From Patescibacteria group bacterium (GTDB lineage: Bacteria; Patescibacteriota; Patescibacteriia; JAHJFT01): DNA of 64,000 nucleotides. A program made the translations under genes and the position numbers. Positions 9,421 to 45,661 of the stretch are shown here, piece by piece. How positions within the stretch are numbered: the first letter of the stretch is position 1; the number at the start of each line of letters is the position of its first letter. Location: assembly GCA_028710985.1 (NCBI GenBank), contig JAQTTB010000001.1:19280-83279 (forward strand), read 5' to 3'. The notes under the pieces are model-generated. The model was not told the origin of the DNA and searched no databases. It was given only the letters and a program-made list of their open reading frames with translations.

Positions 9421-9439
9421 AAATTAATCAGCTTCGATG

Positions 9440-9590
9440 CCTTGTTTGGTTTAGTCAAAAGTTAAAAGTCAAAAGTCCAAAGTCAAGTCTAAAATTTTTT
9501 AGTCCAATCTCTCCAGCTGAATGTATCTATAACTTTTTGACTTTTAACTCAACTTTTAACTTTAGACTTTAGACTTTTAACTACAAAACA
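9440..9590. repeat. long imperfect inverted repeat made of AAAGTC/TAAAAGT-type short repeats, located between two co-directional GT genes
   Basis: Left arm agtcaaaagttaaaagtcaaaagtccaaagtcaagtctaaa. Right arm ctttttgacttttaactcaacttttaactttagactttagacttttaac. Confidence 0.6.
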
Positions 9591-12978: not shown

Positions 12979-13096
12979 AATTTTTGTATTTATTTTATCA
13001 AGTTTATATGTATATTTTAGACGAAATCACGCTTTTTGGCAAGGAGCGAGAATAATAATAAAACGAGCCGATTAAAGCCCGCTTTGTTCCATTGTT

Positions 13097-13552: not shown

Positions 13553-13613
13553 ACTCTTGAAATTTTATCTAATATTAGTTAATATATGCCCACAAGCACA
13601 TATATTATCTCCT

Positions 13614-17308: not shown

Positions 17309-18071
17309 AAAAAAGACTGTTGCGGGGATATATCAGCAAGATCTGAAATAGCAAATATACTATCGAAAAAATGATATATAGACCATACATCCATACTCCA
17401 TATCTAATATCGTACAAGCAAACCAATAATATCAATAAATACCATATCCATACGAAGTCGTAGATCATACTTACCGAATAGTTAAGAAATTTCATAAAAA
17501 CCTTTTTACCCGTAAAGAGGTTTTTATTATAATCCCTGAGGACATCCTGATGATTTTCAAGAGTAACTTTATATTTGATATGATGCCTCAACTTACCTAG
17601 CATTTTATAGTTAGTGAGCAATATGGAAAAAACAATGCTCGAAATTAATATCAGCATGTTCTGCGTAAGAACATAAAGAAAAACGCCCGTAGAAAAAGTC
17701 AAGGCAAACGGATAATAGAAATGAAATAATATCTCGTAATATATTCCCCTCTGAGTATAATGCTCACGATATCGGGCAATACCACCGTCTACCTTATCCA
17801 ACATTGATGATATTCTCATCAAAATAAGCTGGATAAAATATATCCAGAAAGGATCTACGGCAAATAACAGTAAATTAATAAAAAGGGAGATAATCAATAA
17901 CGCCACATTCAAAACGGACACGAAGTTGGGCGAAATTTTTGGAAAAATATTTAACAAAATAAATGTTATATACAAGGCCAGATAGCGTTCTGCGCGGTAT
18001 ATAATACCGCTCTTTTTTATTTTTTCCTGCTTGCCCAAGAAACATTTATCCCTCAGCTCAGAAAATGTCAT
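17286..18071 (-). CDS. CDP-alcohol phosphatidyltransferase-like polytopic membrane protein
   Basis: Contains DKVDGGIARYREHYTQRG, a partial match to the DG-x2-AR-x8-G CDP-OH_P_transf motif. Multiple TM helices. Confidence 0.4.
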   Translation of the reverse strand: MTFSELRDKCFLGKQEKIKKSGIIYRAERYLALYITFILLNIFPKISPNFVSVLNVALLIISLFINLLLFAVDPFWIYFIQLILMRISSMLDKVDGGIARYREHYTQRGIYYEILFHFYYPFALTFSTGVFLYVLTQNMLILISSIVFSILLTNYKMLGKLRHHIKYKVTLENHQDVLRDYNKNLFTGKKVFMKFLNYSVSMIYDFVWIWYLLILLVCLYDIRYGVWMYGLYIIFSIVYLLFQILLIYPRNSLFSREMIDK

Positions 18072-19178: not shown

Positions 19179-19847
19179 TCAGTTACACCGCACCACGGCC
19201 CATATTTCCCCCCAATTTATTTTGTAATCCGATATAGACATTCCGGCTGAATTCAGCTCTTCGGAAAAGTCATTAAAAGTATATTCAATAAAATGATTCC
19301 GATCCAATCGATATTCAAGTCCAAGCTCTTTTTTATACGGCACTAACCAATCCCGATTAATCATCGGCACGCGTATTAAAGCGATATCGCAAATATTTTT
19401 TATTTGCTTTAAAAGAGAAGTCCTATCATCTATATGCTCCAGTACATTAGATACTACGACGCGATCAAATTTTTCATTAAAACTATACTGTGTCGCATCG
19501 GCGACAATATATTCAACGTTTGGCAACGCGCAGTGCGATTTTGCATACTCAATACTGGTTTTATTCATATCAATCCCCACGACTCTTTTGGCCTTTTTGG
19601 CAATCTCGCGGGTCAAAATACCATTACCGCAGCCAATATCAAGGACGGTGTGCGATGGCTCGATATTATTTAGAAAAAAATCGTGATATTCAGTGAGGCG
19701 ATGCTTTGGATGTATCCCCCCCTCTCGCAATGAAGCGACCGTGACAATTTTATGCAATGCCCAATCGTGCAAATAAAATAATCGCCTCAGGATCCAGAGG
19801 GATAAATTTTTATTTTTAAACGCTCTTTTTAATAAATCCTTTAGCAT
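19179..19847 (-). CDS. class I SAM-dependent methyltransferase
   Basis: VLDIGCGNGILTREIA is SAM-binding motif I. 222 aa. Confidence 0.7.
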   Translation of the reverse strand: MLKDLLKRAFKNKNLSLWILRRLFYLHDWALHKIVTVASLREGGIHPKHRLTEYHDFFLNNIEPSHTVLDIGCGNGILTREIAKKAKRVVGIDMNKTSIEYAKSHCALPNVEYIVADATQYSFNEKFDRVVVSNVLEHIDDRTSLLKQIKNICDIALIRVPMINRDWLVPYKKELGLEYRLDRNHFIEYTFNDFSEELNSAGMSISDYKINWGEIWAVVRCN

Positions 19848-20775
19848 ATTCTTTTAATGTGGAACTAATAATACTTTTTTTCTTTGAAAAAATCAGCATC
19901 TTTTCAAACAAATCATAAAAATGTTCCAATTCCTGTTCATTTTTCACATAAGGGCTTCCGCCGATCATCAGCTCGCTTGAATGCACCATAAAAACAGCTA
20001 CGGGAAAATTTTGTCTGAGTAAAGCTTCGAGCACAGACCTTATTTCATCAAAACTTGAGTTTGAGAATATCCTCAACCACCGCTGTTTAAAAAATAATTT
20101 ATTTAATACTTTTTTCAATAACGAATCCGGCAATAAAGCAAATGACCTAGAAATATATGAGGCCTCTCCAACGAAAGGTGAGGTAAACGCAACTGTCATC
20201 GGCACCTCCAATACCCCGTCCACTACCGAGGGCATCAGCGACGAACCGCGAAAATCCGGTCCCCGTCTATCGTGGCCGCCGGAAGAATTATTCTTCCATG
20301 ATATCTTTGGGGTTACCGAGCTGTCGGCGATATAGCCCAATTTATTCAAAAATCGCATTATCCGAATATCATAACCCCAGCGTCCGGCTCGATGAGTCTT
20401 TGGACTTATGCCAAAATTTTCCGCAATCGCCTTTGTTAAAGATGATAATTTTTTGTACAGCTCTTCGTCTTCAAGCTCATTAGGAAAACGATGCTTCAGC
20501 ATTTCCCATTCCCTGTCCTTCACACAAGGCGGTGTTGTCCAAGGATGCAAATGAGCCCCAACTTCCGCTGACCCGGAATCCTGAAAAGGCTTAAGAATAT
20601 TTACCGATTCTCTATCTACCGCAACCTCATAAGTTATAAAATATGTCGGTTTAAAGCGATATTTTTGGCAAAGCTCCTGGAAGCGAGGCAGAAATTTAAT
20701 ATTTTCAAGTGTAATTTCCTCAGATCTTTTCCACTGGTTGTCCGCCTCAACATCAACGGTTATTATTAATTTCAT
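19816..20775 (-). CDS. polysaccharide deacetylase-like protein (divergent)
   Basis: An ITVDVEAD N-terminal beta-strand and His-rich segments resemble divergent carbohydrate esterase 4 (CE4) deacetylase proteins. Weak call. Confidence 0.4.
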   Translation of the reverse strand: MKLIITVDVEADNQWKRSEEITLENIKFLPRFQELCQKYRFKPTYFITYEVAVDRESVNILKPFQDSGSAEVGAHLHPWTTPPCVKDREWEMLKHRFPNELEDEELYKKLSSLTKAIAENFGISPKTHRAGRWGYDIRIMRFLNKLGYIADSSVTPKISWKNNSSGGHDRRGPDFRGSSLMPSVVDGVLEVPMTVAFTSPFVGEASYISRSFALLPDSLLKKVLNKLFFKQRWLRIFSNSSFDEIRSVLEALLRQNFPVAVFMVHSSELMIGGSPYVKNEQELEHFYDLFEKMLIFSKKKSIISSTLKEYAKGFIKKSV

Positions 20776-22406
20776 ACATTTTTAAAACCCCTGATTCGCA
20801 TCCAATATTTGATAACGCTTGAATACACCTTGTAATAATAGTAACATTGTTTTCTTTCACCGCCAAATGCTTCCTTGAATTCAGCGATTGACCTGAGCCC
20901 CCTCTGATTTGAATCCGGACTTATGCCGCCTAAGTCAAAAATTTCATGATCCGTTAATTTCGCGTATCGAATTGCCTCCCAAACGATCATCCGATTTGCC
21001 TGCCCCACAATCTCGCACTGCTGGCTATCGGAAAAACGCAGTGAGGAAAGAGCCCAAGCACGAATATTCCTAGTATCGCTGATAAAAATACCGCCGGCGA
21101 TCATTTCGTTTTTATAATAAGCGGAAAAAAGTAAGCCGTTTTCTAGATAATGGTTGACTCTTTCGATGGGCAAACCTTTTTCTGAGCGAAAAATACTATA
21201 AATTCTTCTAAATTCCTTATGATTTAGGTCATTTTTTACGATAATCCCATTTCTTTCCCCTCTTTGAATCTGTTTACAGATATAATTTTTCCTCATCTTG
21301 CTCCAAATCGTTTCAATGCTCTGTCTTAAATCAATTACCGTGGTTAAACCCGCTCGTTTATGAAAATCTGGCTTATCAATATTGTGATAGGAAAAAAAAT
21401 TGATCATTCCAACGCCTGGAATGTCTTGCGGATCCTCAAACCATCGCCAGCACTTTTTTAAAAAATTAGTGTCAAATAAACCATAGCAAATCCGGCTAGA
21501 AATTACCGGCTTATGCGCCTTTATTAATATAAGATGTGAAAAACCTCTGATTATCGGCAAGTGTTCAGCGAGGCGAAAAAGCGTTGGATAAATTTTTTTT
21601 AAAAAACCCATCCTCTGTTCAAACGGAAGCGCTATGTCAATGAAACTAACATTGTCGATAAAAAAATTTTTGTTAAATAAATTTATTATATCTTTCGCGG
21701 AAAAATAATAATAATAAATACCCGAAGGATGAACTCCCTCTTTTGGTAATTTCTTTAATCTCCTCCTTAAATCAAGATGATACGCCGATAAAATCAACGG
21801 CTTGCCCGGCGCAAGGGTGAAATTAATGTTTTGGAGAAACTGATTACGATACGCATCGGATGGCAAATGCTCTAAGACTTGGGCAGAGAAAGCAATATCA
21901 AAAAAACCTTTTGCTGTTTTAAACGACGTTACGTCAGCCCAGACCAAACCAACATTATTGGATTTTAATTTGCACGAAAGTATCTCCAGCGAATTAAACG
22001 AGATATCCACCCCCAATAAACAACTATAATCAACAAATTCCTCTGTAAAACGACCTGTTCCGCAGCCATACTCAATTATTTTTTTTCCCGATACGTCGCC
22101 GACTTGCGCAAGCGTTGAGGGAATTTCCCTATCATGCCTCGCAGACAATCTAGCGTCATAACCGCCAGCTTGCGCATCTCTAACGGCTATCTCAGAACCT
22201 ATTTTTTCATCATTGACCGTCTGCTCCGGCAATATAAACAAAATCCCATTTTTAATTTGATATGCTTTCCCACAACGAACGCATTTTAGAAAACCATTAA
22301 ATATTGCCTCGTCATTGCCGCTTTCCATGCCACCAATTTCAAGACGAGCGTTATCAGATTGACAGACCAGGCAAGCAATAAGTTTTTTCGAAAATCCTAT
22401 CCTCAT
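20772..22406 (-). CDS. tri-domain fusion: Trm112-like zinc-ribbon + class I SAM methyltransferase + C-terminal FemAB/GNAT-like acyltransferase domain
   Basis: CLVCQ...CVRCGK zinc ribbon. IIEYGCGTGRFTEEF SAM motif. C-terminal region of about 190 aa with a GNAT/FemAB-like pattern (IRAWALSS...FDLGG). Confidence 0.55.
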   Translation of the reverse strand: MRIGFSKKLIACLVCQSDNARLEIGGMESGNDEAIFNGFLKCVRCGKAYQIKNGILFILPEQTVNDEKIGSEIAVRDAQAGGYDARLSARHDREIPSTLAQVGDVSGKKIIEYGCGTGRFTEEFVDYSCLLGVDISFNSLEILSCKLKSNNVGLVWADVTSFKTAKGFFDIAFSAQVLEHLPSDAYRNQFLQNINFTLAPGKPLILSAYHLDLRRRLKKLPKEGVHPSGIYYYYFSAKDIINLFNKNFFIDNVSFIDIALPFEQRMGFLKKIYPTLFRLAEHLPIIRGFSHLILIKAHKPVISSRICYGLFDTNFLKKCWRWFEDPQDIPGVGMINFFSYHNIDKPDFHKRAGLTTVIDLRQSIETIWSKMRKNYICKQIQRGERNGIIVKNDLNHKEFRRIYSIFRSEKGLPIERVNHYLENGLLFSAYYKNEMIAGGIFISDTRNIRAWALSSLRFSDSQQCEIVGQANRMIVWEAIRYAKLTDHEIFDLGGISPDSNQRGLRSIAEFKEAFGGERKQCYYYYKVYSSVIKYWMRIRGFKNV

Positions 22407-22408
22407 AT

Positions 22409-23521
22409 TTATCCTAAAATCTTCATTAAATCATTATAAAACCGATCGGGGTTATACTGATTCTTTATCAATTCAAAGCCGGCATTTCCCATTTTTATTA
22501 AGTTGTGCTGATCCGAAATAGTCAGGCGAATCTTATCTATTAAATCGACCAAATTTTTACTTTCAAAGATGTAACCATTCACGCCATTCTCAATATATTC
22601 CTTCGTTCCATTTTCGCTCGAACTAATAACCGCCAGTTTGCAACTCATTGCTTCAACTATCGAAAAAGCCGCGGCTTCACCATAGCTCGGTAAAATGAAT
22701 ACATCATTTACTTTATATTCTTCATAAACATCCTTCCAATTAATATCAAATTTCACCTTCACAATTTCCGATAAATTATTAACTTTAATGTACTCTAATA
22801 ATTCATTTGTATATTCATTCTCATCCCTTTCGCCGACTAATGTAAGATTAATATTAAAATTATCTTTTAATTTTTCAACGGCCTTAACTAATAAAATCTG
22901 ATTCTTGCGCTCTTGGAATTTACCTACGCAGATAATATTAACCCATCCGCCAATAAAATACTCCTTGTTGAAGTCAAGCGCTTCATGAACAAATGGAATA
23001 TAAAAAAGATTCTTATTCTTACTTGCATAAGCGTCGTTACCCCTCAATGGAGTAATTACCGACGCCTTCCACAAAAAACCAACCAGCCAAATCGAGAAAC
23101 TCTTGATTTTTTTTCTAAATTTTTCAATTTGAATTAAAAAAATAATTTTTTTAACACCCAGGAACCGACTTAGAAGCGCGCCAAGGATTGAATAAAGACT
23201 ATCAATATTTTTTATCAGCACAACGTTCGGCCGATATTCCTTTATCAAATGATATAGTGAAAATATGGGTGGATAGCTATATCGTATCTCGAACCGATTC
23301 TTAATTGTGCGTCCACCCCGCTTATTGAATATTCTATTAAATAGCTTAAAAATATTCGAATATCCAACAACTCGCGGTTCTAGAATATCATAGCATTCTG
23401 ATTTTCCGCGATACATAACAAACATGGCCACTTCGTGTCCAAATGACTGAAGGGCCTCAATCATGTAGAAAAAATTTGTATGATATCGCGGGGTAAGAAA
23501 TAAAAATTTCATTGATTTCAA
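22409..23521 (-). CDS. glycosyltransferase family 4
   Basis: C-terminal GEAAAFSIVEAMSCKLAVISS GT4 motif. Confidence 0.7.
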   Translation of the reverse strand: MKSMKFLFLTPRYHTNFFYMIEALQSFGHEVAMFVMYRGKSECYDILEPRVVGYSNIFKLFNRIFNKRGGRTIKNRFEIRYSYPPIFSLYHLIKEYRPNVVLIKNIDSLYSILGALLSRFLGVKKIIFLIQIEKFRKKIKSFSIWLVGFLWKASVITPLRGNDAYASKNKNLFYIPFVHEALDFNKEYFIGGWVNIICVGKFQERKNQILLVKAVEKLKDNFNINLTLVGERDENEYTNELLEYIKVNNLSEIVKVKFDINWKDVYEEYKVNDVFILPSYGEAAAFSIVEAMSCKLAVISSSENGTKEYIENGVNGYIFESKNLVDLIDKIRLTISDQHNLIKMGNAGFELIKNQYNPDRFYNDLMKILG

Positions 23522-25224
23522 ATTTTTAAAATTTTATAATCCTTATTACTGAAAACTTCCTCCAGTCCGTCTGCTGAATTCGAACTATAGTATAAATCCA
23601 TATATTTACCGCGCGGCAAAAGAATATATGAACAATCAAGCCTAACGGCAAAATTTACAATCTCTTTGAAGTCAGCCGCTTTTTCAACGATCTGATTATA
23701 TGCCTGTCTCTCCTCATACCATCTTTTAGCATTTTCGAAATTTGAAGTAACCCAAATAGAACCTTCTTTTTCAGTCAGATTAGTATTCTGCCTACTTAAT
23801 ACTTTGAATTTAAATTCATTTTGAAAGTCATCAAAAACAAAAATCCGGTTCTCACTAACGGAAAGCGCGCTTTTTGCCCAAATTGCCGCCTCATAAAGAT
23901 TGTTAAAGTTATTTGTATTCGATTCATCCACCACGGGGGCTAAATTATATTTTATTCTTATGCCTTCGGGCACCAATGCCCTTACTACCGGCCTAATAAC
24001 GGGCGCAAAAAAATAAATTGGCGTAACCACAACGATCAAAGATAATGCTACGGACAGCCATTTTTTATTCATCCTAGAATAAAGCAAATAAACAACTAGA
24101 GCGAACTGCATGATTAGAATGAAGCCCAACACCCTCATTAGCCGAATGTGCTCCACGAAAAATGGCAGCTCTCCATTTTTCATTAAAAAATAATTAGTAA
24201 CATCAACACCGATAACGAATAAAATGGTTATAATCATCAGTATGGTGCTGATTTTATGAACTGCCCGTTTCTCCGAATCTAATGAGGACCCGTAGATACG
24301 CATGATAAAAAACGATAAAAAAAACATTAAGATCATTGTAAAACTATCCCACATCGAACGTTTAATTCTGGCCAAGTCGACTGTCGCGAGAAAACCGTTC
24401 GCTTCAAACCTATATTGAACAATTTCAGAATGCAAAGCAACGTCCTCGGCGCTCAAATACTCCTCGGCCGGAATCATGCCGGTACTCGAATTAGTAAAAT
24501 GGTTTATCAAAAATGGCAAAGCTACTATAAAATAAATGACAGCAAAAATAATTATCGGCTTGAAATATGCCCTATGTTGCTTCGCATAAAAAATCAAAGC
24601 GCCCAAGATAAATAAACCGATAACTACGCTTCCGACGGGCGGATATAAGTAAAGCAAAATGCCGGCAGATATTGCCAATAAAATATTATATTTATTATTT
24701 TTTAAACCATAAATTATCCAATAGTAGCTAAGCAAAAAATAAAAAGGAAAGGCGAATGTATTGCCGCGCAAATTCCCAAGATCGAGCAAGCCAATTCTTG
24801 TAAAGAATACATTACGCGGTACTACGCACAAAAGTCCCACCAATGCCGCTAGGGACCAGCTTTTAAATATTTTTTTAGCAATTAATCCGCTCGCAAGATA
24901 GGTTATGGCAATTATAAGAATAGTAAATAGATGATAGCTCACTAAATCATACTTCAAGCCTGGATTGAAATAATAAAAAACCGGGAACGCTGCATATAGC
25001 TCCTCCTGATTATAAGCCGACGGCACGTCTGTCCATACTCCATCATTTTTTTGTATCATCAATAATTGATAACACCAAAGATCGCTGCTCAAATCGCCAA
25101 GATTACTACCATAATTAGTAAAAATATAATAAAAAATTATGACTACAAGTATGATAGTAAAAAAAAGTTTAGAATTGAAAAATTTTAACATTTTATTTAC
25201 GTTGTTTAAATAGAAGATCAGCAA
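23518..25224 (-). CDS. polytopic membrane protein, GT-C-like (GtrC/YfhO-like), directly downstream of a GtrB-like GT2
   Basis: About 420 aa of TM helices followed by a roughly 150-aa soluble C-terminal domain. Translationally coupled to the GT2 at 25193..26050. Confidence 0.5.
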   Translation of the reverse strand: MLIFYLNNVNKMLKFFNSKLFFTIILVVIIFYYIFTNYGSNLGDLSSDLWCYQLLMIQKNDGVWTDVPSAYNQEELYAAFPVFYYFNPGLKYDLVSYHLFTILIIAITYLASGLIAKKIFKSWSLAALVGLLCVVPRNVFFTRIGLLDLGNLRGNTFAFPFYFLLSYYWIIYGLKNNKYNILLAISAGILLYLYPPVGSVVIGLFILGALIFYAKQHRAYFKPIIIFAVIYFIVALPFLINHFTNSSTGMIPAEEYLSAEDVALHSEIVQYRFEANGFLATVDLARIKRSMWDSFTMILMFFLSFFIMRIYGSSLDSEKRAVHKISTILMIITILFVIGVDVTNYFLMKNGELPFFVEHIRLMRVLGFILIMQFALVVYLLYSRMNKKWLSVALSLIVVVTPIYFFAPVIRPVVRALVPEGIRIKYNLAPVVDESNTNNFNNLYEAAIWAKSALSVSENRIFVFDDFQNEFKFKVLSRQNTNLTEKEGSIWVTSNFENAKRWYEERQAYNQIVEKAADFKEIVNFAVRLDCSYILLPRGKYMDLYYSSNSADGLEEVFSNKDYKILKI

Positions 25225-26050
25225 TTAGAGAAATGAAAAATATGAGCACGGCGCTTAACATGAGGAATATGCTGAAATTACCAACAAAATTATCGCCTAC
25301 AAGATCATATATACCCTTGGCGAAACCGACTGTAAAGAATGCAATTCCAAACGGTATTAAAAATTTTAATGGTTGAAAATAGAAGGCAATTTTAAAAATT
25401 AAATTTATGTAAGTAAAAAAATTCCACGGCCTAATACCAGACTCGCCCACCCTTTTGTGATAGTCGATTGGCAGGAATTTGACTAAGTAATCATTCTTTA
25501 AAAACGCCATAGTAATGGTTGACGTAAATGAATATCGGCTGGGATACAATCCCCAAAACTCAAAACAGATATCTTTTTTGAAAAGCCTCATCCCCGAATT
25601 CAAGTCAGGTATTTTTCTATTGACAAGCCATCCCGCAAACCAATTTACAAATTTTTTCGGAACCCGTCTAATAAATTCGGTATGGTTAACCTTCGTCACT
25701 CTTGCACCGACAATCATGTCATAAGAATCCATGAACGGAAAAAAATCCGATAGCTTCTCTACGGGATAAGTGCCATCGGCATCGATAATAAAAATCCACT
25801 TGCCGGCTGCGGTTTTAATCCCCCTTTTCAAGGAGGCTCCGTAACCTAAATTATATGGATTGCGAATAATCTTTATATCTGATCGTGATTCTAATGTTTT
25901 CAGAGTGCCATCCTCGCTCTTATCATCAATGGCAATTATTTCAAAAGTATGTGATGTACACTTTTCGGCAACTCGTGCCAGTCCATCCAAAACATTCGCA
26001 ACCGTCGCTTCTTCGTTATAACATGGGATAACAATTGAAATTTCACTCAT
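25193..26050 (-). CDS. glycosyltransferase family 2, GtrB/ArnC-like polyprenyl-phosphate sugar synthase (two C-terminal TM helices)
   Basis: SIVIPCYNEEATVANVL...IAIDDKSEDGT...IDADGTY plus C-terminal hydrophobic helices. Confidence 0.8.
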   Translation of the reverse strand: MSEISIVIPCYNEEATVANVLDGLARVAEKCTSHTFEIIAIDDKSEDGTLKTLESRSDIKIIRNPYNLGYGASLKRGIKTAAGKWIFIIDADGTYPVEKLSDFFPFMDSYDMIVGARVTKVNHTEFIRRVPKKFVNWFAGWLVNRKIPDLNSGMRLFKKDICFEFWGLYPSRYSFTSTITMAFLKNDYLVKFLPIDYHKRVGESGIRPWNFFTYINLIFKIAFYFQPLKFLIPFGIAFFTVGFAKGIYDLVGDNFVGNFSIFLMLSAVLIFFISLIADLLFKQRK

Positions 26051-26054
26051 ATAA

Positions 26055-26981
26055 TTATTTATTTATTGCAATTATTCGAATATTGGAGGTGGCATATAGA
26101 GCCCCGAGAACAAAATCAATTAACGAAAAAAATAGTGTTAAAAATAAATTATTTATATTAAACCAACCGGCAATTTTTTTATGTTTGTCATCGAAATAAT
26201 GATGCAATGACTGAATCCAGAAAGTCGGGCTCAGCAAAAATTGAATTCCAATAACAGCGAAATTGCACTCATTCAACAAACCCACGAGGATATTTTTATT
26301 AAAAATATGCCAATGTCGTGGTATATGATAGCCTCCCCAATATCTCTTTCTAAAAATTCTCGCATCTAGAGAATCGTAATTTGGGGTTTCGATAATAAGC
26401 AAGCCGTTCCGTTTAAGCATCCTCCTGGCCTTTAAAATAATTTCGCGTGGATTATGAAGGTGCTCAATCGTTTGATTCAAAATGATTGCGTCAAAATAAT
26501 CATAATAACCCCCCATTTCTTCGAATCTTCCTGCAATGAATTCGATACCATGCCGATTTAATATATCACCAGTTGCAGAATTAATATCATTGCCATACAA
26601 TTTCCATCCGCTACCCCTGTGTTTCTTAATAATTCTGAGCAATTCTCCGTTGCCGCACCCACCGTCGAGAATTCTAGCATCATCCGAAAGATTAGCAAGC
26701 AAAGGACGAACCTTCAATCTTTGCACAAAATTCCGCGCAATCTTTGTAATAAAATTTAACCCCTCTTCAAATTTATAAGGAAAATAATTTGCTGGATAAA
26801 TCTTTTCAATTTCTCCGACGGTCGGATTGGGATTTAGGTATATCACACCGCACTTTAAACACTTTACGTAACAATATTCCTGATCGGATGTGTGATATTC
26901 AAAATCTTTTCCATGCGCCCAAACTTTGTACAGATCCGATCCGCATACACCACGACAAGCTTTTTGGGTCCTTATTTCCAT
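26055..26981 (-). CDS. class I SAM-dependent methyltransferase with N-terminal Cys4 zinc-ribbon
   Basis: CRGVCGS...CLKCGVIY zinc ribbon. ILDGGCGNGELLRII SAM motif. Confidence 0.7.
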   Translation of the reverse strand: MEIRTQKACRGVCGSDLYKVWAHGKDFEYHTSDQEYCYVKCLKCGVIYLNPNPTVGEIEKIYPANYFPYKFEEGLNFITKIARNFVQRLKVRPLLANLSDDARILDGGCGNGELLRIIKKHRGSGWKLYGNDINSATGDILNRHGIEFIAGRFEEMGGYYDYFDAIILNQTIEHLHNPREIILKARRMLKRNGLLIIETPNYDSLDARIFRKRYWGGYHIPRHWHIFNKNILVGLLNECNFAVIGIQFLLSPTFWIQSLHHYFDDKHKKIAGWFNINNLFLTLFFSLIDFVLGALYATSNIRIIAINK

Positions 26982-27080: not shown

Positions 27081-28913
27081 TTATAATTCAAGCTTATTTT
27101 TACGGTAAAATTTTACAAAACTTATCAAACCCCACAACTCTCTACTATAATCTTTCTTATTCCCCATATGATCCGCAACCATTTTTTCAATCGCTTTACC
27201 ATTTAAAAATGCTATATCCGCAATATTCTTTTTATCTAAAATATCCATCATGAAATCCTTTAATTCATTCTTCAGCCAATCCGCGATCGGAAAGCTGAAT
27301 CCCTGCTTCTTTGTATAAATTAACTTTTTCGGTAAATACCTCTCTAGAAGCTTTTTTAAAATATACTTAGTGGTGATACCGCGAATTTTTAATCCCGGCG
27401 CCAAGGAATTGCTAAACTTTATTACTTCGTTGTTCAAGAAAGGAACACGTACCTCTAAAGAATTAGCCATGCTCATTCGATCGACCTTGACTAAATACTC
27501 CCCTTCCAGCACGGTTTTCTGATCAACATACAATAGCTGATTCAGCACATCTTCCCCCTCCACGACTTTAAAATACTCTGCAAAATCGTCGCAAACATTG
27601 TTAAAAAAATCTTCAACTAGGATATCCGCATTATGCATTATTCTATAATAAAAATGAGATTTTGTAAATGGATACTTGGCCGCATAAACAAACCTTTTTA
27701 ACTTATAATCAAAGCTCATTTTTCTGTAAGAAGACGGCAAATAATGAACCATTTTTTCCACCAATGTTTTTATGGGCAGGTGGCGATAAATTTGACTAAT
27801 TCTAGGCAAATAATAGATAGGGTAACCCCCAAATAACTCATCCCCGCCGTCGCCGGATAAGCAGACTGTCGCTCGCTCTTTTGCAAAATGGCACAAGAAA
27901 TATGTGGGAATCGCGCTGCTGTCACCAAAAGGCTCCTGAAAATAATCAAAAATATCCGGAATGGCATTTATGACCTCCCTCTTCTCTAGATAAATCGAAT
28001 TATGATTAGTGCCAATAATCTTTGCGATTTTACTGGCGTTCTTTGATTCGTCATAAGAATTCTCACCGAAATTAAATCCAACCGTAAATGTATTCAGGTT
28101 TCCTACATGCTCCTTGGCGATGGCGGTGATTAAACTAGAATCAACGCCGGAGGATAAGAATACCCCCAATGGCACATCGCTGACCAAGGATTGTTCGATT
28201 GATTCATCGAGCACGCACCGTAGGGCATCGATTGAATTATTAAGATCTTGATAATTATTTGTAAATGTCGGTTTCCAATATTCCTGAATATTAATTTGCT
28301 CTTTCTGCAAATCAAAAATCGCAAAACTAGCCGGTGGCAATTTAAAAACGTTTTCAATTATGGACTCATTGCCATAAATGTAATTTTGATAAAAAAATCT
28401 TCTGACTGCCCTTAAATTAATTTTTTTGTTGATCTGGAGCGATGCCAGCTCAGAGGCGAATTGAAATATCCCGTCATGAAAACTATAGTAAAGTGGTTTT
28501 ATTCCCATTCGATCTCTGGCCAAAATTAATTGATTTTTAACTTCATCGTAAATTGCCAGGGCGAACATGCCATCGAATAATTTGAAGGCTTCTGGTCCAT
28601 ATTTAATATAGGCCCTTAATACAACCTCCGTATCGGAATCGGAGAAATAGTCACCGGGCAAATCTTTTTTTAATTTTTTAAAATTATATACTTCACCATT
28701 GTAGACAATCGCATAGGCGCCAATTCTCATGGGTTGGCTCGCCCTTTGAGAAAGATCAATGATAGAAAGACGCCGGTGTCCTAATTTGACCCTCTGATCT
28801 TCGGATATAAAAAAACCTGCCGCATCCGGACCGCGGTGGAGCATTGAATCTCTTCTCTTCAAAAAAATTTCCTTATCAAATTTCGATGAATATTCTCCGA
28901 TAATTCCGCACAT
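27081..28913 (-). CDS. asnB: asparagine synthase (glutamine-hydrolysing) family amidotransferase (WbpS/PseA/AglX-like candidate sugar amidotransferase)
   Basis: N-terminal MCGIIG class II glutaminase nucleophile. SGGVDSS PP-loop. 610 aa. Confidence 0.85.
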   Translation of the reverse strand: MCGIIGEYSSKFDKEIFLKRRDSMLHRGPDAAGFFISEDQRVKLGHRRLSIIDLSQRASQPMRIGAYAIVYNGEVYNFKKLKKDLPGDYFSDSDTEVVLRAYIKYGPEAFKLFDGMFALAIYDEVKNQLILARDRMGIKPLYYSFHDGIFQFASELASLQINKKINLRAVRRFFYQNYIYGNESIIENVFKLPPASFAIFDLQKEQINIQEYWKPTFTNNYQDLNNSIDALRCVLDESIEQSLVSDVPLGVFLSSGVDSSLITAIAKEHVGNLNTFTVGFNFGENSYDESKNASKIAKIIGTNHNSIYLEKREVINAIPDIFDYFQEPFGDSSAIPTYFLCHFAKERATVCLSGDGGDELFGGYPIYYLPRISQIYRHLPIKTLVEKMVHYLPSSYRKMSFDYKLKRFVYAAKYPFTKSHFYYRIMHNADILVEDFFNNVCDDFAEYFKVVEGEDVLNQLLYVDQKTVLEGEYLVKVDRMSMANSLEVRVPFLNNEVIKFSNSLAPGLKIRGITTKYILKKLLERYLPKKLIYTKKQGFSFPIADWLKNELKDFMMDILDKKNIADIAFLNGKAIEKMVADHMGNKKDYSRELWGLISFVKFYRKNKLEL

Positions 28914-28919: not shown

Positions 28920-29327
28920 TTAATTCTCTTTAAAGCAAAAAACGAATCTTTTATTAATTAAAAATGTAAAAAAGGACATTAATAATCCGACCAGGGCAAC
29001 GGATAAAAGGTAATAAAAACCTAAAATAGTTGTTAGCAAATAGACCAAAGTGAAGGTAATTAATCCTATTGCGCCATATATCGCGAGATAACCAAGGTAC
29101 CTTGCAACATAACCTGATTTTCCATGACCAGAAAATGTAAATAATGAATTCATTATAAAACTAAAAGTCCAGGTAATAAAAGTTGCGATTACAAAAGATA
29201 ACATGTACCAAAAATGCAGTGATTCAGTAAAAATGAAAGTTAATAATAAATTCAACAAAAAAGAACTGACTCCAATGATGAAAAATATCGGATATCTCCT
29301 AAAGATATTTATTATATTCAAAGCCAT
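28920..29327 (-). CDS. GtrA family membrane protein
   Basis: Four hydrophobic helices. The start is chosen at MALNIINIF (29327) to avoid a 53-nt overlap with the upstream gene. The ORF track start is 29399. Confidence 0.55.
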   Translation of the reverse strand: MALNIINIFRRYPIFFIIGVSSFLLNLLLTFIFTESLHFWYMLSFVIATFITWTFSFIMNSLFTFSGHGKSGYVARYLGYLAIYGAIGLITFTLVYLLTTILGFYYLLSVALVGLLMSFFTFLINKRFVFCFKEN

Positions 29328-29346
29328 CTTGAAAAAATTAATAAAG

Positions 29347-30783
29347 TCACGCTTCAACAATTTTCTTTTTACGACCTCCGAATTTCCATGAATTGCCATT
29401 TCTCATCTGAATATAAATTGAATTCAAATCAATTTCTGAATTACTTCTCAACCATCGTTCGATAAGATCCCTTGATAAATATGTAGTTGTTGGCGTTACC
29501 AATTGGTCAAAAACAATGTGGTGAAAAAAAATAAAGTTCTCCTCGGAAATCCAAACGGTATATTGATATAATGGTAATTTTTTTACAAAAGAAATACTTT
29601 TAAGTATATTGATTATTTTAGAGTAAAGAAAAAATAAAATAGCCAATGGGCCAGCGATAAAATATTTATTTAACCACCATGGTGTATGACAAACAATGCG
29701 ACGAAGTCGATCGATGACGTTTATTATTATCCAATTGCCTTCTTCCGCATAAACCCAGCAATGAAAACGACCGCCGGGTATAGTATTTTTAATTACAAAA
29801 TTAAAACCCAACTCCGGCTCCTTTAAATGATGGAGAACGCCAATACAATAAACAACATCGAACCCACCTTCGCTGAATTGTAAAATATCATCCTGAATAA
29901 TCCTATATTTTGTATTTTTGATATCTTCTAAATTTTTTCTCGCCGAATCGACGGAAGCACCTAAGTCAACCCCAACCATTTCACGCGGCTGCCAATTTGC
30001 TAAATGCACCATCAGGCTGCCATTGCCGCAGCCGAGCTCTAATATTTTATTTCCAGAAAAATCATTCTTGGTCAGTGGATGCATCCAATCCTCGAACTGT
30101 TTAAATGTATATATTGAACCAGCGACCAGATGATTCCACGATTTGGCAAATGCATCTGCCGTACCCTGATCCGGACTAGCAATAGCTTCATTCAGCTCCT
30201 TGGAGTGTGATTTTACACAAACGAATTCAAACGAAATCTCATCAAATCCCCCAACCCAAAAGCACCATATTCTGCTGCAAAAAACCTGGTTAAAATTAGC
30301 TAAACCGCTAATAAATTTATCTACTATTTTCAGTAGTTGCGTGGAAATTTCGCCATAACCCAAATATTGCAATAAATGCGGAAAAGCCATCCACCGCAGT
30401 TCCATTCTTTTCAGCCTAAATTCGACGCCGATATATCCAGATGAAGTATACTTTTCATTAAAGTAAAGGGGGAAAGCAACATCAAAACCGTGTGCATGTT
30501 GAGCGTGCGTAAAGCCGCGAGAAAAATGCGGCACTTTCAATTTTAAAATGCCGCCGTCTCTTAAAATTCTGTGCATCTCTTTCATCACCTCGAACGGTTT
30601 ATCGAGATGCTCCAAAACATGATAAGCCTCAATCAAATCAAAGCTATTCGATTCAAATGGATAAGGCAAACTGTTCAGGTCATGGATAACATCCGGTGAA
30701 ACTAACGGATTGATGTCAACATTGATATAATCGCTCTTTTTTGACGCACCGCATCCTAAATTTAATTTGTTCGTACTTTTCAT
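29347..30783 (-). CDS. tandem dual-domain SAM-dependent methyltransferase
   Basis: Two SAM motifs: LNLGCGASKK and ILELGCGNGSLMVHL. 478 aa. Confidence 0.65.
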   Translation of the reverse strand: MKSTNKLNLGCGASKKSDYINVDINPLVSPDVIHDLNSLPYPFESNSFDLIEAYHVLEHLDKPFEVMKEMHRILRDGGILKLKVPHFSRGFTHAQHAHGFDVAFPLYFNEKYTSSGYIGVEFRLKRMELRWMAFPHLLQYLGYGEISTQLLKIVDKFISGLANFNQVFCSRIWCFWVGGFDEISFEFVCVKSHSKELNEAIASPDQGTADAFAKSWNHLVAGSIYTFKQFEDWMHPLTKNDFSGNKILELGCGNGSLMVHLANWQPREMVGVDLGASVDSARKNLEDIKNTKYRIIQDDILQFSEGGFDVVYCIGVLHHLKEPELGFNFVIKNTIPGGRFHCWVYAEEGNWIIINVIDRLRRIVCHTPWWLNKYFIAGPLAILFFLYSKIINILKSISFVKKLPLYQYTVWISEENFIFFHHIVFDQLVTPTTTYLSRDLIERWLRSNSEIDLNSIYIQMRNGNSWKFGGRKKKIVEA

Positions 30784-30800: not shown

Positions 30801-31754
30801 CTAAAAATTAATTTTAGATTTTAAAACGTACGGTTTCTCCCCTCGCGATTCATAATAAGTGCGCATGATCAATTCCGCTAAAACACCCATGGCGATAAGC
30901 TGTATGCCGACAATGATAAATAAAGCAGTCAATATCGGCAATGGAGTCTCCACGAAACTTCTTAATCCAAAAATTTTAAGCACAATCGCAGATAGGCCGG
31001 CCATAATCCCGACAAAAAGCGCGATAAACCCCATCCCTCCAAAAAAATGCATCGGCTTATTCAAATACTTTTCAAAAAATTTTATAACTACCAAATCCAG
31101 TAAAACTCTAAAAATTCTAGATAAACCATAATTGCTCCGACCGGCTTTTCTTGGACGATAGTTTACCTCCACTTCTGTCAGATTAGCGCCTTGGCGTACG
31201 GCATAAGCCGGTATAAACCGATGCATTTCTCCATAGAGGGAAAACCCGTGTAATATTTTTTTTCTATATGCCTTCAATGTGCATCCATAGTCATGCAACT
31301 TAACATTAGTAATTCTTGAAATCAACCAGTTCGCCATGAGGGAGGGCAGTCTACGACTTAATTTATTCTTTTGCCAACGCCCGCGACGCCACCCGGAAAC
31401 AACGTCATACCCGTTATTAATACGCTCCAAGAGCCTTGGAATATCGGCCGGGTCATTTTCTAAATCACTATCCATGGTCACGATTATATCACTGCTCGCA
31501 TATTCAATCCCGGCTTGAAGCGCGGCGGTTTGTCCGCGATTTACCGCAAAACTTAAAACCTTAATTTTATTATTATCGCCCGCTAGTGATTTTAACACGG
31601 CCAAAGAATTGTCGCTCGACCCATCGTCAACCAGAATTATTTCATAATCATAACTATTCCTCTCCATTACGGACACGATCTCTCGGACCAATTCCAATAA
31701 ATTTTTTTCCTCATTATAGACTGGTATAACAATCGATAAATGCATATTTCCCAT
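30801..31754 (-). CDS. glycosyltransferase family 2, GtrB/ArnC-like polyprenyl-phosphate sugar synthase
   Basis: LSIVIPVYNEEKNLLELV...LVDDGSSDNS...MDSDLEND plus two C-terminal TM helices. Confidence 0.8.
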   Translation of the reverse strand: MGNMHLSIVIPVYNEEKNLLELVREIVSVMERNSYDYEIILVDDGSSDNSLAVLKSLAGDNNKIKVLSFAVNRGQTAALQAGIEYASSDIIVTMDSDLENDPADIPRLLERINNGYDVVSGWRRGRWQKNKLSRRLPSLMANWLISRITNVKLHDYGCTLKAYRKKILHGFSLYGEMHRFIPAYAVRQGANLTEVEVNYRPRKAGRSNYGLSRIFRVLLDLVVIKFFEKYLNKPMHFFGGMGFIALFVGIMAGLSAIVLKIFGLRSFVETPLPILTALFIIVGIQLIAMGVLAELIMRTYYESRGEKPYVLKSKINF

Positions 31755-33430: not shown

Positions 33431-34159
33431 TTATTTTCTACATATCGCCATCAACGAAACGCCGAATGGAAAATTAAAACGCTTCAATACAAACGCTTCC
33501 AGGGAAAACACCCAAAATAATATACGAGATAAGGGGCCGCCGCTGCCGACAAATTCGATTTTCTTAACAGAAAAAAAAGCTTTTTCGAAAAAACGGAAAA
33601 ATAATATTGGCAAAAATAAAATGGTATTAAAATACGAAGAACGTACAACGTGCAAACCCAAACTCCGTAATTTTACAAAAATTTGATTGTAGGTATAACG
33701 GCGAAAATGATGTCCCGCCTCATCGGCCCAGCCCCACAAAAAATTAAAAGCAGGAACAAAAATAATAATTATTCCTTCTTTTTTTACTACACGTTTCAAT
33801 TCACTAATAGCTTTATTATCATCAGACACGTGTTCTAATACATCGAGGCAAATCACAACATCAAAAAAATTATCTGGAAATTGAATATTCGTAATATCTC
33901 CCAAATCGACATTCTCTAAAAAATTTTGTTTACAAAAATTAACGGCCAACGGGCTATTATCAACGCCATAACAAACACCGAATTTTTTGAGCTCCTTCAT
34001 CAGCATACCCGTGCCACAACCGACATCGAGCATCTTCAATGCACCACTATGGTCAGAAAAAAAATTACTGATTATATCAGCTACAATTCTTCGCCTCACC
34101 CTATACCACCAATTATCTTTTTCAGCTGTATAAATTAATTTATAGACGTCAGATCGCAT
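33431..34159 (-). CDS. class I SAM-dependent methyltransferase
   Basis: MLDVGCGTGMLMKEL SAM motif. Confidence 0.7.
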   Translation of the reverse strand: MRSDVYKLIYTAEKDNWWYRVRRRIVADIISNFFSDHSGALKMLDVGCGTGMLMKELKKFGVCYGVDNSPLAVNFCKQNFLENVDLGDITNIQFPDNFFDVVICLDVLEHVSDDNKAISELKRVVKKEGIIIIFVPAFNFLWGWADEAGHHFRRYTYNQIFVKLRSLGLHVVRSSYFNTILFLPILFFRFFEKAFFSVKKIEFVGSGGPLSRILFWVFSLEAFVLKRFNFPFGVSLMAICRK

Positions 34160-35237: not shown

Positions 35238-36337
35238 GTTTCGTTATAAAGTTTTAATGTCGCCTCCTTGCCCGGAAGTCGCTCTAACGCGTTCTTGGCA
35301 TTTTGACTAAACTTCATTTTTAATTCAGGGTTATTCTTTACTTTGACCAATGCGTCAGAAATCGCACTTATATTATTTACCGGGACCACGATACCATTCT
35401 CATAGTTTTTTACCACCTCTCCGGCGCAACCGACGTCGGTCATGATAACTGCGCAGCTGCAAGCCAGGGATTCAATAGCCACCCTGCTCCATCCTTCGTA
35501 TTCAGAGGTCAATAAAACACAATCCGCTCCCTTAAAAAAACTCACAACGTCCTGGGTCCAGGGAATGAAAATCACCGATTCACCCAAGCCCAATTCGCCT
35601 ACCAATCTTTTTAATTCTTTTTCCTGACTCCCCTCGCCAACAATGAGCAAGCCGCTCTTAGGACTTTTTTTTAAGAACATTAAAAATGCTTTTAAGGCAA
35701 CGTCTATTCTTTTTACCCTCTCCAATCGCCCCATAACCAGAGCGATAAAATCAAATTGTGAATATTTTTCCTTTAGATTAAAATCCGGCTCCTTTAATTC
35801 CAGACTTTTCCAAGGTGTGCAAATCGGCAGAACCGTTATCTTTTCTTGATTAATCCCTCTCTTGATTAAGTCCCGCTTGATTCTCTGACTAACCGCTCTG
35901 ATAGAATCGGCCTTTTTTATAATTCCCAAGCCAAGATACCATCGTAGATTGTTCAAAAAATTTTCTCCGCGCCAATGAGGATTACTAAAAAAATCGCCAT
36001 GGAGTTGAATATTCAAACCTAAACCGAATTTTCTTTTAGCGAAATATCCGATTAACCCGATGGCAAACGGGTCTTGAACCGAAACGACATTAATATTGCT
36101 GCGCTTAATAATGCTGGCTGCTTCCCTCCACAATTTTAACCAGCCAAAAAATTTATTATTAACTCCCACGGATCGTACGAATACGTTGTCGGTTAATTGT
36201 ATATTCGTGCTACAACCAGCCGGCAGCAAAATATAAAATTTATTACCAATAAAATTGGCGTAACTCTTAAATCTCTCCTGTGTCTCGCTACCCGACTTTA
36301 AAATTCTTGCATCGGTGCCAATTATCAAAATGTTCAT
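35213..36337 (-). CDS. glycosyltransferase family 4
   Basis: C-terminal EYEGWSRVAIESLACSCAVIMTDVG motif. Confidence 0.75.
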   Translation of the reverse strand: MNILIIGTDARILKSGSETQERFKSYANFIGNKFYILLPAGCSTNIQLTDNVFVRSVGVNNKFFGWLKLWREAASIIKRSNINVVSVQDPFAIGLIGYFAKRKFGLGLNIQLHGDFFSNPHWRGENFLNNLRWYLGLGIIKKADSIRAVSQRIKRDLIKRGINQEKITVLPICTPWKSLELKEPDFNLKEKYSQFDFIALVMGRLERVKRIDVALKAFLMFLKKSPKSGLLIVGEGSQEKELKRLVGELGLGESVIFIPWTQDVVSFFKGADCVLLTSEYEGWSRVAIESLACSCAVIMTDVGCAGEVVKNYENGIVVPVNNISAISDALVKVKNNPELKMKFSQNAKNALERLPGKEATLKLYNETWDKAIKK

Positions 36338-37338
36338 TTCAGCTTCAAATTAATTGCTTTAATTATCGGCTTATTGGCAATGCTGCAGTTTTTGCATACC
36401 GGCAATTCCTGCTCAATGACTGCTCTTCTGATTTTTGCGTATTTATCGCTCTGCCAAATTTTATTAAAACTTCTTTCTTCAAAAACATTACCAACCACGA
36501 TGCTCCCCTCAAGATCGGTGCAGCATACACCCACATCACCGTTCCAAAGTATCACACTGCGCCAAATCCAGGGGCATGTCTTTGGCTTATCTATATTCAC
36601 GAGTCTACCCTCCTTCAGGCGATAGCGACTATTTTTTAAATCCGTTGGCAGAAACTCCAAGGCATTTGCTAGAAGCTTTTCCTGAAGTTCGGCCGTTGAC
36701 CCGATATTGAAAGAAGCGCTTTTAAACCACAGGGCGTCAACTCCGAGCTTGCGGCCCAAATCCTCAATCGCTCCCATCTCACGCTCATTGAACTTCATTA
36801 CCAAGAATTGAATAATAATCCTTGTCTTGCGGTTTTTGATGCCCGCTATCTGCCGCAGGGTTCCAACTATTTTATTAAAATCGCTATTGACACGATATTT
36901 CTGCTGCGTCTCGGCCGATGCTCCGTCCATGGCAAAAATCAAATTATCAATTCCATAGCCGACCGCCTCGCGATACCTTTCAACCGGCATGGTCCCATTA
37001 GTACTAACTGTCAATATATAACCGTGGTCTTTGAGATACTTCACCATCGCCGGAAACTCAGGATTGGCGAATGATTCGCCGGAAAAGTGCAAAGTAATTT
37101 TTTTGATGCTCCTGGGCAAATAACTTTCTATTTCCTCGAGCTGTTTCAAGGTTAAAAATCCTCTCGGCTTGGTTGACGTTCTCTGAATGCAAAACGGACA
37201 ACGCAAATTACAAAAACTCGAGGCCTCAATAATTATTTCTTTAAGCGGCCTAACCCTCCGAATCCAGGCATCTGGAAGCAATAACAGCGCTCTGTTGAAC
37301 AGAGTCGATTTACTTATTTTATCTTTCAGCCAATACAT
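36334..37338 (-). CDS. radical SAM protein with C-terminal SPASM/twitch Cys cluster
   Basis: CNLRCPFC (CxxxCxxC) near the N-terminus. C-terminal CPWIW...CCTDLEG...CKNC cysteine cluster. Confidence 0.75.
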   Translation of the reverse strand: MYWLKDKISKSTLFNRALLLLPDAWIRRVRPLKEIIIEASSFCNLRCPFCIQRTSTKPRGFLTLKQLEEIESYLPRSIKKITLHFSGESFANPEFPAMVKYLKDHGYILTVSTNGTMPVERYREAVGYGIDNLIFAMDGASAETQQKYRVNSDFNKIVGTLRQIAGIKNRKTRIIIQFLVMKFNEREMGAIEDLGRKLGVDALWFKSASFNIGSTAELQEKLLANALEFLPTDLKNSRYRLKEGRLVNIDKPKTCPWIWRSVILWNGDVGVCCTDLEGSIVVGNVFEERSFNKIWQSDKYAKIRRAVIEQELPVCKNCSIANKPIIKAINLKLK

Positions 37339-45660: not shown

Positions 45661-45661
45661 A

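Follow-up and report, generated by a model that had tools for sequence, protein, structure and literature searches.

A divergent AsnB-family amidotransferase in a low-GC glycan island of a Patescibacteria group bacterium, a probable amidating enzyme for a sugar carboxylate

We analysed a stretch of 64,000 nucleotides (hereafter the window) from an uncultured Patescibacteria group bacterium (GCA_028710985.1, contig JAQTTB010000001.1) that encodes, at 27081-28913 on the minus strand, a protein of the AsnB family of glutamine-dependent amidotransferases (hereafter the target). The gene lies in an array of glycosyltransferase (GT), methyltransferase and membrane protein genes with a foreign nucleotide composition, and its closest relatives keep many of the same partners. 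Judged by analogy with known systems, the target more likely than not amidates the carboxylate of a sugar, probably a uronic acid, and would feed a lipid-carrier/GT-C glycosylation branch.

The locus and its low-GC island

The island, the target and its principal neighbours are the following (positions are those of the window).

16000-41300, no strand: low-GC glycan island, 37.8% GC versus 49.5% in the flanks; a tightly packed minus-strand array that includes the target
27081-28913, minus strand: target AsnB-like gene, 610 amino acids, AsnB-family glutamine-dependent amidotransferase of the "long" subtype
28920-29399, minus strand: small membrane protein of the GtrA family (Pfam GtrA_DPMS_TM), 6 nucleotides upstream of the target
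29347-30783, minus strand: MT478, 478 amino acids with two methyltransferase domains, between GT2_317 and the GtrA-family gene
30801-31754, minus strand: GT2_317, ArnC-like polyprenyl-phosphate glycosyltransferase with a C-terminal transmembrane helix
31754-33418, minus strand: U554, about 9 transmembrane segments, distant paralog of U568 (hhalign 87%)
33431-34159, minus strand: MT242, methyltransferase by Pfam
26055-26981, minus strand: S-adenosylmethionine (SAM)-dependent methyltransferase of 308 amino acids, directly downstream of the target
25193-26050, minus strand: GT2_285, DPMS/AglJ-like polyprenyl-phosphate sugar synthase with a C-terminal transmembrane helix; best NCBIfam models AglJ and Dol-P-hexose transferase
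23518-25224, minus strand: U568, about 10 transmembrane segments, predicted GT-C fold, no Pfam or NCBIfam match
22409-23521, minus strand: GT4b, glycosyltransferase, last member of the strictly conserved block

GC content at the third codon position is 0.35-0.49 in the island and 0.50-0.63 in the flanks, which carry rpsB, tsf and gap. From low to high coordinates, the island encodes a CDP-alcohol-transferase-like protein, a GT4, a methyltransferase, a CE4-like deacetylase and a methyltransferase-FemAB-like fusion, followed by a GT4, U568, the GT2 of 285 amino acids, a methyltransferase, the target, the GtrA-family protein and the double methyltransferase. Next come the GT2 of 317 amino acids, U554, a methyltransferase, two GT4 and a radical SAM/SPASM protein, and at the end two more GT4, a DUF218 protein and a short-chain dehydrogenase/reductase (SDR). 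The GT2 genes (at 25193 and 30801) and GT4 genes (at 18068, 22409, 34167, 35213, 37319 and 38446) thus stand on both sides of the target, in agreement with an original prediction, made from the sequence of the window, that the gene is embedded among glycosyltransferases and outside a context of amino-acid biosynthesis. Six methyltransferase proteins, MT478 included, are encoded in the island, which suggests a heavily methylated glycan.

The target is separated from its neighbours by 6 nucleotides upstream and 99 downstream. The number of promoter-like sequences across the array equals the shuffled expectation, and terminator-like sequences are in modest excess (22, shuffles 16.2 +/- 3.7). Horizontal exchange among Parcubacteria is the probable origin of the island, given that GC content is 35% in L003, the orthologous locus closest to it.

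Domain architecture and active site

The target is a real gene for a full two-domain AsnB-family enzyme. Its open reading frame (ORF) is uninterrupted, spans 27081-28913 exactly and starts with MCGIIG. The protein is soluble, with zero transmembrane-like segments in transmembrane prediction, and matches GATase_6/7 (PF13522/PF13537) at residues 29-159 and Asn_synthase (PF00733) at residues 231-599, the latter with 317 bits against a gathering threshold of 21. Its domains and active-site elements are as follows.

28269-28913, minus strand: N-terminal nucleophile (Ntn, class II) glutaminase domain, about residues 1-215; nucleophile Cys2 after Met removal
27117-28223, minus strand: C-terminal PP-loop synthetase (Asn_synthase) domain, residues 231-599 (PF00733, E 3e-94)
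28137-28154, minus strand: PP-loop variant S254-S255-G256-V257-D258-S259 (canonical SGGxDS), reading FLS-S-G-V-D-S-S
27837-27857, minus strand: motif S353-G-D355-G-G-D358-E359, in E. coli S346-G-E348-G-S-D351-E352, with Asp for Glu348
27558-27761, minus strand: 68 amino acids (residues 385-452) that E. coli AsnB lacks, inserted behind the GGY motif within the substrate-binding region

An AlphaFold2 (AF2) model of the target built from 40 homologs reached a predicted local distance difference test (pLDDT) score of 92.6 and a predicted template modelling (pTM) score of 0.92. With this model, Foldseek placed TsnB9 nearest (template modelling scores 0.78/0.82), followed by E. coli AsnB (0.64/0.78), and a sequence search of PDB gave the same ranking, with TsnB9 (7YLZ) first at 168 bits.

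Among curated models, the target passes the generic NCBIfam TIGR01536 far beyond chance (434 bits, cutoff 267) and is annotated by NCBI as asparagine synthase. It falls below the equivalog for E. coli-type AsnB, NF006949 (293 bits versus a cutoff of 499, aligned over residues 1-365 only), as does every ortholog and relative that was scored. The top curated model is TIGR03108 (eps_aminotran_1 of XrtA/PEP-CTERM systems), which leads TIGR01536 by 38 bits; on this model the Parcubacteria orthologs score 419-486 bits and relatives of 635-637 amino acids 628-633. A role of the lasso-peptide cyclase or beta-lactam-synthetase type was rejected (184 bits versus a cutoff of 525, with an intact glutaminase site).

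The residues of the glutamine site are C2, R48, N72, G73, E74 and D94 in the target (C1, R49, N74, G75, E76 and D98 in E. coli AsnB). All six are kept in every full-length homolog compared (P0015 lacks the N-terminus), so the target should release ammonia from glutamine. While the MCGIIG nucleophile described in the original prediction is borne out by the ORF start and the intact glutamine site, the PP-loop, given there as SGGVDSS, actually reads S-S-G-V-D-S. Its second position is Ser in 23 of the 26 members of the target's clade and Ala in the other 3; relatives with around 40% identity and E. coli AsnB have Gly. Ser or Ala at this position is specific to the clade.

In the synthetase domain, the key lysines are retained (K516 and K536, corresponding to E. 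coli K429 and K449). Relative to E. coli, E348 corresponds to D355, K376 to Q459, D384 to T467 and R387 to K476, and the last two changes hold across the whole clade. According to PMC8554201, homologs with an activity other than asparagine synthesis are marked by an extra loop and by loss of an Asp-binding D and R, a description that the target fits; the two residues are unnumbered in that source and are taken here as E. coli D384 and R387. We hold with moderate confidence that the target lacks these Asp-binding residues, as the alignment crosses the large insertion. The insertion itself is predicted to consist of ordered helices (block pLDDT 71-95).

These data bear on two alternatives. In the first, the target is a true asparagine synthetase, providing a reduced-genome cell of the Candidate Phyla Radiation (CPR) with Asn, and its place in a glycan island is incidental. 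The pass of TIGR01536, the NCBI name and the intact catalytic residues are in keeping with this, and PMC8554201 reports that long-type homologs of B. subtilis can complement an E. coli Asn auxotroph. The failure of NF006949 and the replacement of the Asp-binding D and R speak against it, together with the genomic context described below, and we regard it as quite improbable.

In the second, the target is a peptidoglycan amidotransferase of the LtsA/AsnB1/B. subtilis AsnB type, acting on the epsilon-carboxyl of meso-diaminopimelate (meso-DAP) or on another stem-peptide carboxylate of lipid-linked precursors. The target has the features by which the meso-DAP-amidating homologs are described (Asp-binding D and R lost, extra loop; PMC8554201), and LtsA works on lipid intermediates (PMC7920481). 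We nevertheless consider a role in peptidoglycan unlikely. The extra loop and the D/R loss are common to TsnB9 and to the whole long subtype, and therefore these features do not discriminate meso-DAP enzymes.

A conserved partnership with lipid-carrier enzymes

We found 26 proteins with 51-64% identity to the target, of which the named ones all belong to Parcubacteria or Vogelbacteria; all others reach at most 40%, a sharp step down. In a distance tree that included E. coli AsnB as the sole characterised enzyme, all 100 bootstrap replicates recovered this clade as monophyletic, and E. coli AsnB stood far away from it. A scan of genome contigs with the target gave only relatives of 30-38% identity and no close ortholog.

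The gene partnership of the target is conserved. A block of GtrA, AsnB-like, methyltransferase, GT2_285, U568 and GT4b genes recurs in each of the orthologous loci L003, L004 and L005. In L004 and L005 the GtrA gene is the next gene upstream of the AsnB-like gene; in L003 it lies 4.3 kb away on the same side. The methyltransferase gene is directly downstream, or one gene further, in all orthologous loci. GT2_285 orthologs share 56-60% identity in L003 and L004 and 30% in L005, while identities are 41-51% for U568 across the orthologous loci and 39-49% for GT4b in L003-L005. In L003 and L005 the block extends to the methyltransferase-FemAB-like, deacetylase-like, methyltransferase, GT4 and CDP-alcohol-transferase-like genes, with a Wzx gene in L003.

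U568 and U554, both multi-pass transmembrane proteins of about 555 amino acids, have no PDB match at E <= 10 in a profile search and no Pfam or NCBIfam match. For U568, 16 homologs were detected; none has a Pfam domain, the named ones are all from Parcubacteria, and they share their contigs with the AsnB-like orthologs. The family thus appears to be restricted to Parcubacteria and to co-occur with the target clade. An AF2 model of U568 (pLDDT 85.6) had AftA, PglB and ArnT as its top five Foldseek matches (probability 0.97-1.0) and nothing else credible. These matches identify U568 as a transferase of GT-C fold using polyprenyl-phosphate-linked donors, and U554 is probably a second GT-C protein, judging from its sequence relationship to U568. 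In the U568 family, S46, S47, D48 and W50, which lie close to the first loop, show little or no variation. The NCBI annotation of this genome holds only a version of U568 of 312 amino acids (P0121, PHW53_00200).

The second GT2 of the island, GT2_317, is ArnC-like (NCBIfam ArnC, 203 bits; PDB ArnC, 180 bits, ahead of GtrB with 125 bits). Its orthologs (51-56% identity) are encoded 3-6 nucleotides upstream of AsnB-like relatives of 38-40% identity in L007, L008, L020 and L021, and the same pair is found in L003. A MT242-like methyltransferase (35-48% identity) lies beside the GT2/AsnB-like pair in L007, L008, L020 and L021, and one to three PMT_2-like GT-C genes lie near it in L008, L020 and L021. 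In L022 and L009, the AsnB-like gene is also paired with GT2 or GT-C-like proteins.

Taken together, the target travels with sugar-lipid-carrier enzymes in a surface-glycan island, and therefore amidation of an acidic sugar is the most likely role, not asparagine synthesis. The strict multi-genome synteny with glycan genes, the co-occurrence with a Parcubacteria-specific GT-C family and the foreign composition of the island all argue against an asparagine synthetase, as does the presence of a second subfamily, P0073, likewise in a glycan locus. Together with the failure of NF006949 and the replaced Asp-binding residues, this upholds the earlier view of the target as a glycan-pathway amidotransferase and not a housekeeping AsnB.

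The same neighbourhoods bear on the peptidoglycan alternative. The GT2/AsnB-like pair of the relatives of 637 amino acids adjoins a gene for a class-A penicillin-binding protein (PBP), which would suit an enzyme of cell-wall precursors. Against this, the target itself sits in a mobile low-GC glycan island and not among cell-wall core genes, its conserved partners are GtrA, DPMS-like GT2, GT-C, GT4 and methyltransferases, and there are no mur or PBP genes in the window.

We propose the following mechanism for the favoured amidation of a sugar carboxylate, in which the nature of the carboxylate, the point at which it is amidated and the final acceptor are inferred from context. By the chemistry of the family, the N-terminal Cys of the cytoplasmic enzyme would hydrolyse glutamine to yield ammonia, the ATP-dependent PP-loop domain would adenylate the carboxyl of the substrate, and the tunnelled ammonia would displace AMP to form a primary amide. 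Judging from the gene context, the enzyme would act not on aspartate but on a sugar with a carboxyl group, for which a hexuronic acid is the likeliest candidate. This sugar may be bound as a uridine diphosphate (UDP)-sugar or presented on undecaprenyl phosphate after loading by the ArnC/DPMS-like GT2. The GtrA-type protein could then move the sugar-lipid, by now amidated and perhaps methylated, across the membrane, where a GT-C enzyme (U568 or U554) would pass the sugar to an extracytoplasmic acceptor.

A wider view is possible but doubtful, namely that these loci represent an undescribed Arn/Gtr-like surface-modification pathway with an AsnB-like amidating step, widespread in CPR and other uncultured bacteria. 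In such a pathway, an ArnC-like GT2 would couple the uronic acid to undecaprenyl phosphate, amidation by the AsnB-like enzyme would make a neutral uronamide (UDP- or lipid-linked), methyltransferases would decorate it, GtrA would flip it, and lineage-specific GT-C proteins (U568, U554 or PMT_2-like paralogs) would attach it to an acceptor such as a wall glycopolymer, an S-layer or a type IV pilin. If true, the pathway would tune the surface charge of episymbiotic bacteria, and the tight GT2/AsnB-like gene pair (3-6 nucleotides apart in five loci) would be the signature of the system. The literature searched held no description of the combination of AsnB, GtrA and polyprenyl and nothing usable for asparagine synthetase with uronamide. 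For asparagine synthase with Patescibacteria, the papers seemed irrelevant from their titles or abstracts, and one of them names the enzyme only as a viral auxiliary metabolic gene.

Several further observations were made in the loci with relatives and in the window. In the loci of the AsnB-like family of 637 amino acids, the PBP gene beside the pair is divergently transcribed (L008, 7020-13141; L020, 3853-15536; L021, 3616-14577), and PMT_2-like GT-C genes (one to three), methyltransferase genes and genes for type IV pilins come after the pair. Pilin or the cell wall could be what is glycosylated there. L007 (1-17854) encodes P0073, a second Parcubacteria AsnB-like subfamily with 40% identity to the target, in a locus with NeuB, a CMP-sugar-synthase-like protein, two B12-radical SAM proteins, a Glyphos_transf protein and a UDP-GlcNAc 2-epimerase, which brings the AsnB-like lineages tied to glycan loci in Parcubacteria to at least two. 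In L017, a metagenome-assembled genome of SAR116 has two AsnB-like paralogs around 4 kb apart (6403-8286 and 12110-13933). In the window, the radical SAM/SPASM protein (36334-37338, minus strand) is encoded among four GT4 genes and has a tungsten-cofactor maturase as its best NCBIfam model (114 bits, cutoff 380). The right flank (43417-51557, minus strand) encodes a Wzy_C and TPR protein of 747 amino acids, an S8 subtilase of 652 amino acids with an FG-GAP-like repeat and a protein of 1259 amino acids without a Pfam domain. Beyond it lie genes for an extracytoplasmic function sigma factor and a DUF5667 protein, a DUF11 protein and a GHL15 and FG-GAP protein.

The carboxylate substrate and comparison with known systems

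The evidence for a pool of UDP-glucuronic acid (UDP-GlcA) in the window consists of one gene, encoding an SDR that resembles UDP-glucuronate decarboxylase.

11965-12978, minus strand: UXS-like SDR (UDP-glucuronate decarboxylase-like), 214 bits to human UXS1 versus 99 for the next class, in the native-GC flank

A second SDR (15039-15956) is GalE/WbpP/WbgU-like, and a third (40268-41254) is ambiguous, with 191 bits to GalE, 163 to UDP-GlcA 4-epimerase and 153 to UXS; none of the three SDRs of the window reaches any NCBIfam cutoff. The UXS-like gene, a priming transferase gene and the GalE-like gene are all in the native-GC flank outside the island, the first of them 14 kb from the target. The original prediction had counted two UXS-like enzymes and a GalE-like epimerase nearby; only one UXS-like enzyme is clear, and both it and the GalE-like enzyme lie outside the island. 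In the Vogelbacteria locus L004, the SDR encoded directly upstream of the GtrA and AsnB-like genes (8565-9524) is a strong homolog of Mth373 (319 bits; PDB 8W3U/9AR1), and the window has no ortholog of it. Mth373 of M. thermautotrophicus has a crystal structure with UDP-xylose and has been classed as a UDP-glucuronate decarboxylase (PMC12820599). The UXS-like SDR in the window and the Mth373-like SDR in L004 are thus two links to UDP-GlcA.

The conserved gene order, the co-occurring U568, the foreign island and the one-strand array support a sugar carboxylate as the substrate. The following points weigh against it. No UDP-glucose/UDP-HexNAc 6-dehydrogenase (UDPG_MGDP_dh) was found among the window ORFs of at least 120 amino acids, or by Pfam in the called-gene tables of ten context loci, and therefore the source of any uronic acid is not seen; the UXS-like and Mth373-like enzymes remove a carboxylate and do not supply it. 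The TIGR03108 score of the target (472 bits) is far under the cutoff of 817 and barely above that of TIGR01536, so the statement that the target is closest to the WbpS type is weak, and its likeness to WbpS, WbqG, WbtH, LtsA and B. subtilis AsnB was judged by models and descriptions only. The residue argument hangs on an alignment that spans the large insertion. The GT2/AsnB-like pairs of L008, L020 and L021 come from related genomes and are therefore not fully independent cases. Of the uronamide predicted originally, the part on a glycan amidotransferase is supported, and a uronic acid is only a proposed substrate.

Another carboxylate would account for the missing uronate dehydrogenase. It could be an aminoacyl group, placed on a de-N-acetylated amino sugar by way of the FemAB/GNAT-like domain of MT544 (Vim-like), or a nonulosonic, pyruvyl or lactyl carboxylate. 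Should the sugar undergo de-N-acetylation and aminoacylation, two proteins of the island, PDA319 and MT544, could take part.

19816-22406, minus strand: PDA319, similar to CE4-type polysaccharide deacetylases, and MT544, a methyltransferase with a fused FemAB/GNAT-like domain

MT544 itself (544 amino acids, 20772-22406, minus strand) corresponds in L003 to two separate genes, one for each domain (16214-17871). PDA319 has no NCBIfam match even at E <= 1. The CE4-like deacetylase, the FemAB/GNAT-like domain and the AsnB-like gene are all kept in L003 and L005, the P0073 locus has genes for NeuB and a cytidine monophosphate (CMP)-sugar synthase, and a triad of VimE, VimA and WbpS is found in P. 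gingivalis and near exosortase exopolysaccharide loci (PMC7468200). The FemAB score is very weak, 18.9 bits for MT544 and 31.2 for its L003 counterpart, and TIGR03019 reaches 20-28 bits versus a cutoff of 260; because both are so low, the Vim-like triad is a lead only. Moreover, P. gingivalis WbpS amidates a uronate, not an amino acid, and Wbp enzymes are absent from the window. We give a carboxylate of this kind little chance, about as little as asparagine synthesis.

The original prediction also left room for an acetamidino sugar, naming WbpS, PseA and AglX as AsnB paralogues in glycan loci. Formation of an acetamidino (acetimidoyl) group on an N-acetyl sugar would fit the glycan context in general, and nothing more specific points to it: the target has no TIGR03573 match at E <= 0.01, and there is no HisH/HisF-like protein among the window ORFs of at least 120 amino acids. 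AsnB-family enzymes act on carboxylates that they activate as acyl-adenylates, and acetamidino groups are made by enzymes of the WbuX/PseA/AglX/WbpG type (TIGR03573). Of the three precedents, WbpS is of the right type; PseA and AglX we take to be WbuX-type PP-loop enzymes (TIGR03573) with HisH/HisF-like partners, not AsnB paralogues, and their membership of another family makes the acetamidino reading unlikely, indeed highly so in our estimate. A literature search returned nothing usable on the family membership of AglX or PseA.

AsnB-like amidotransferases in glycan loci are already known, and the target is a divergent, lineage-specific member from an unstudied phylum. Patescibacteria (CPR) make up a large share of bacterial diversity and are host-attached, and their surface glycans are almost unstudied. 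The target marks a horizontally mobile module of an amidotransferase, a lipid-carrier GT2, GtrA, a new GT-C and many methyltransferases, the product of which is probably a charge-neutralised and heavily methylated surface sugar. Annotation pipelines name the target asparagine synthase via TIGR01536, and counting it as amino-acid biosynthesis would overstate the metabolic capacity of CPR. The ArnC-like GT2/AsnB-like pair could lead to a new route of uronamide delivery to the cell surface.

Among known systems, WbpS of P. aeruginosa O6, WbqG of E. coli O121 and PGN_1234 of P. gingivalis have the same Ntn-glutaminase and Asn_synthase architecture as the target, are likewise encoded in surface-glycan loci and presumably carry out the same chemistry, from carboxylate to primary amide. 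WbpS and WbqG are placed in eps_aminotran_1 (TIGR03108), the best model of the target, and WbqG is required for N-acetylgalactosaminuronamide (GalNAcAN); P. gingivalis deleted for the AsnB-like PGN_1234 no longer has the linking sugar of its type IX secretion system in the glucuronamide form (PMC7468200). In H. pullorum, formation of N-acetylhexosaminuronamide (HexNAcAN) in the N-glycan has been ascribed to WbpS by means of a wbpS mutant (PMC6025236). The target differs from this group by its TIGR03108 score below the cutoff, by the lack of a WbpO/Ugd-type dehydrogenase in the window, by its CPR host and by its S-S-G-x-D-S PP-loop. Also, WbpS has been proposed to act at the UDP-sugar stage (PMC6025236), whereas the partners of the target are GtrA, ArnC/DPMS-like GT2 and GT-C proteins.

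LtsA, AsnB1 and the AsnB of Bacillus and Listeria amidate meso-DAP (PMC7920481, PMC8554201). By description, these enzymes are, like the target, of the long subtype with an extra loop in the substrate region and the Asp-binding D/R lost. The polyprenyl-linked substrate of LtsA (PMC7920481) is a precedent for a lipid-linked substrate, and the target differs from this group by its place in a mobile glycan island and not among cell-wall genes. With E. coli AsnB (1CT9) and human ASNS, the target shares the fold, the glutaminase site, K429, K449 and SG(D/E)GxDE; it differs from E. coli AsnB in sequence (around 23% identity), in the failed NF006949, in the replacements E348 to D, K376 to Q, D384 to T and R387 to K, and in the insertion of 68 amino acids. 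TsnB9 (7YLZ), the closest solved structure by sequence and fold, has 23-24% identity and an unrelated context, being a secondary-metabolite enzyme that makes a hydroxamate. It is an enzyme of the long subtype, and the carboxylate that it accepts is no amino acid.

Finally, the module can be compared with the Arn (ArnC/ArnT) and Gtr/Pgf (GtrA/GtrB/GtrC; PgfS) systems. It differs from these systems in that no ArnA or ArnB equivalents are present in the window and the GT-C proteins are new families without a Pfam match. To our knowledge, no described Arn or Gtr/Pgf system has an AsnB-like amidotransferase. An ArnC-like GT2, a GtrA-family protein, GT-C-fold transferases and a CE4-like deacetylase are shared, and these are together the components needed to assemble a modified sugar on undecaprenyl phosphate and to transfer it outside the membrane.

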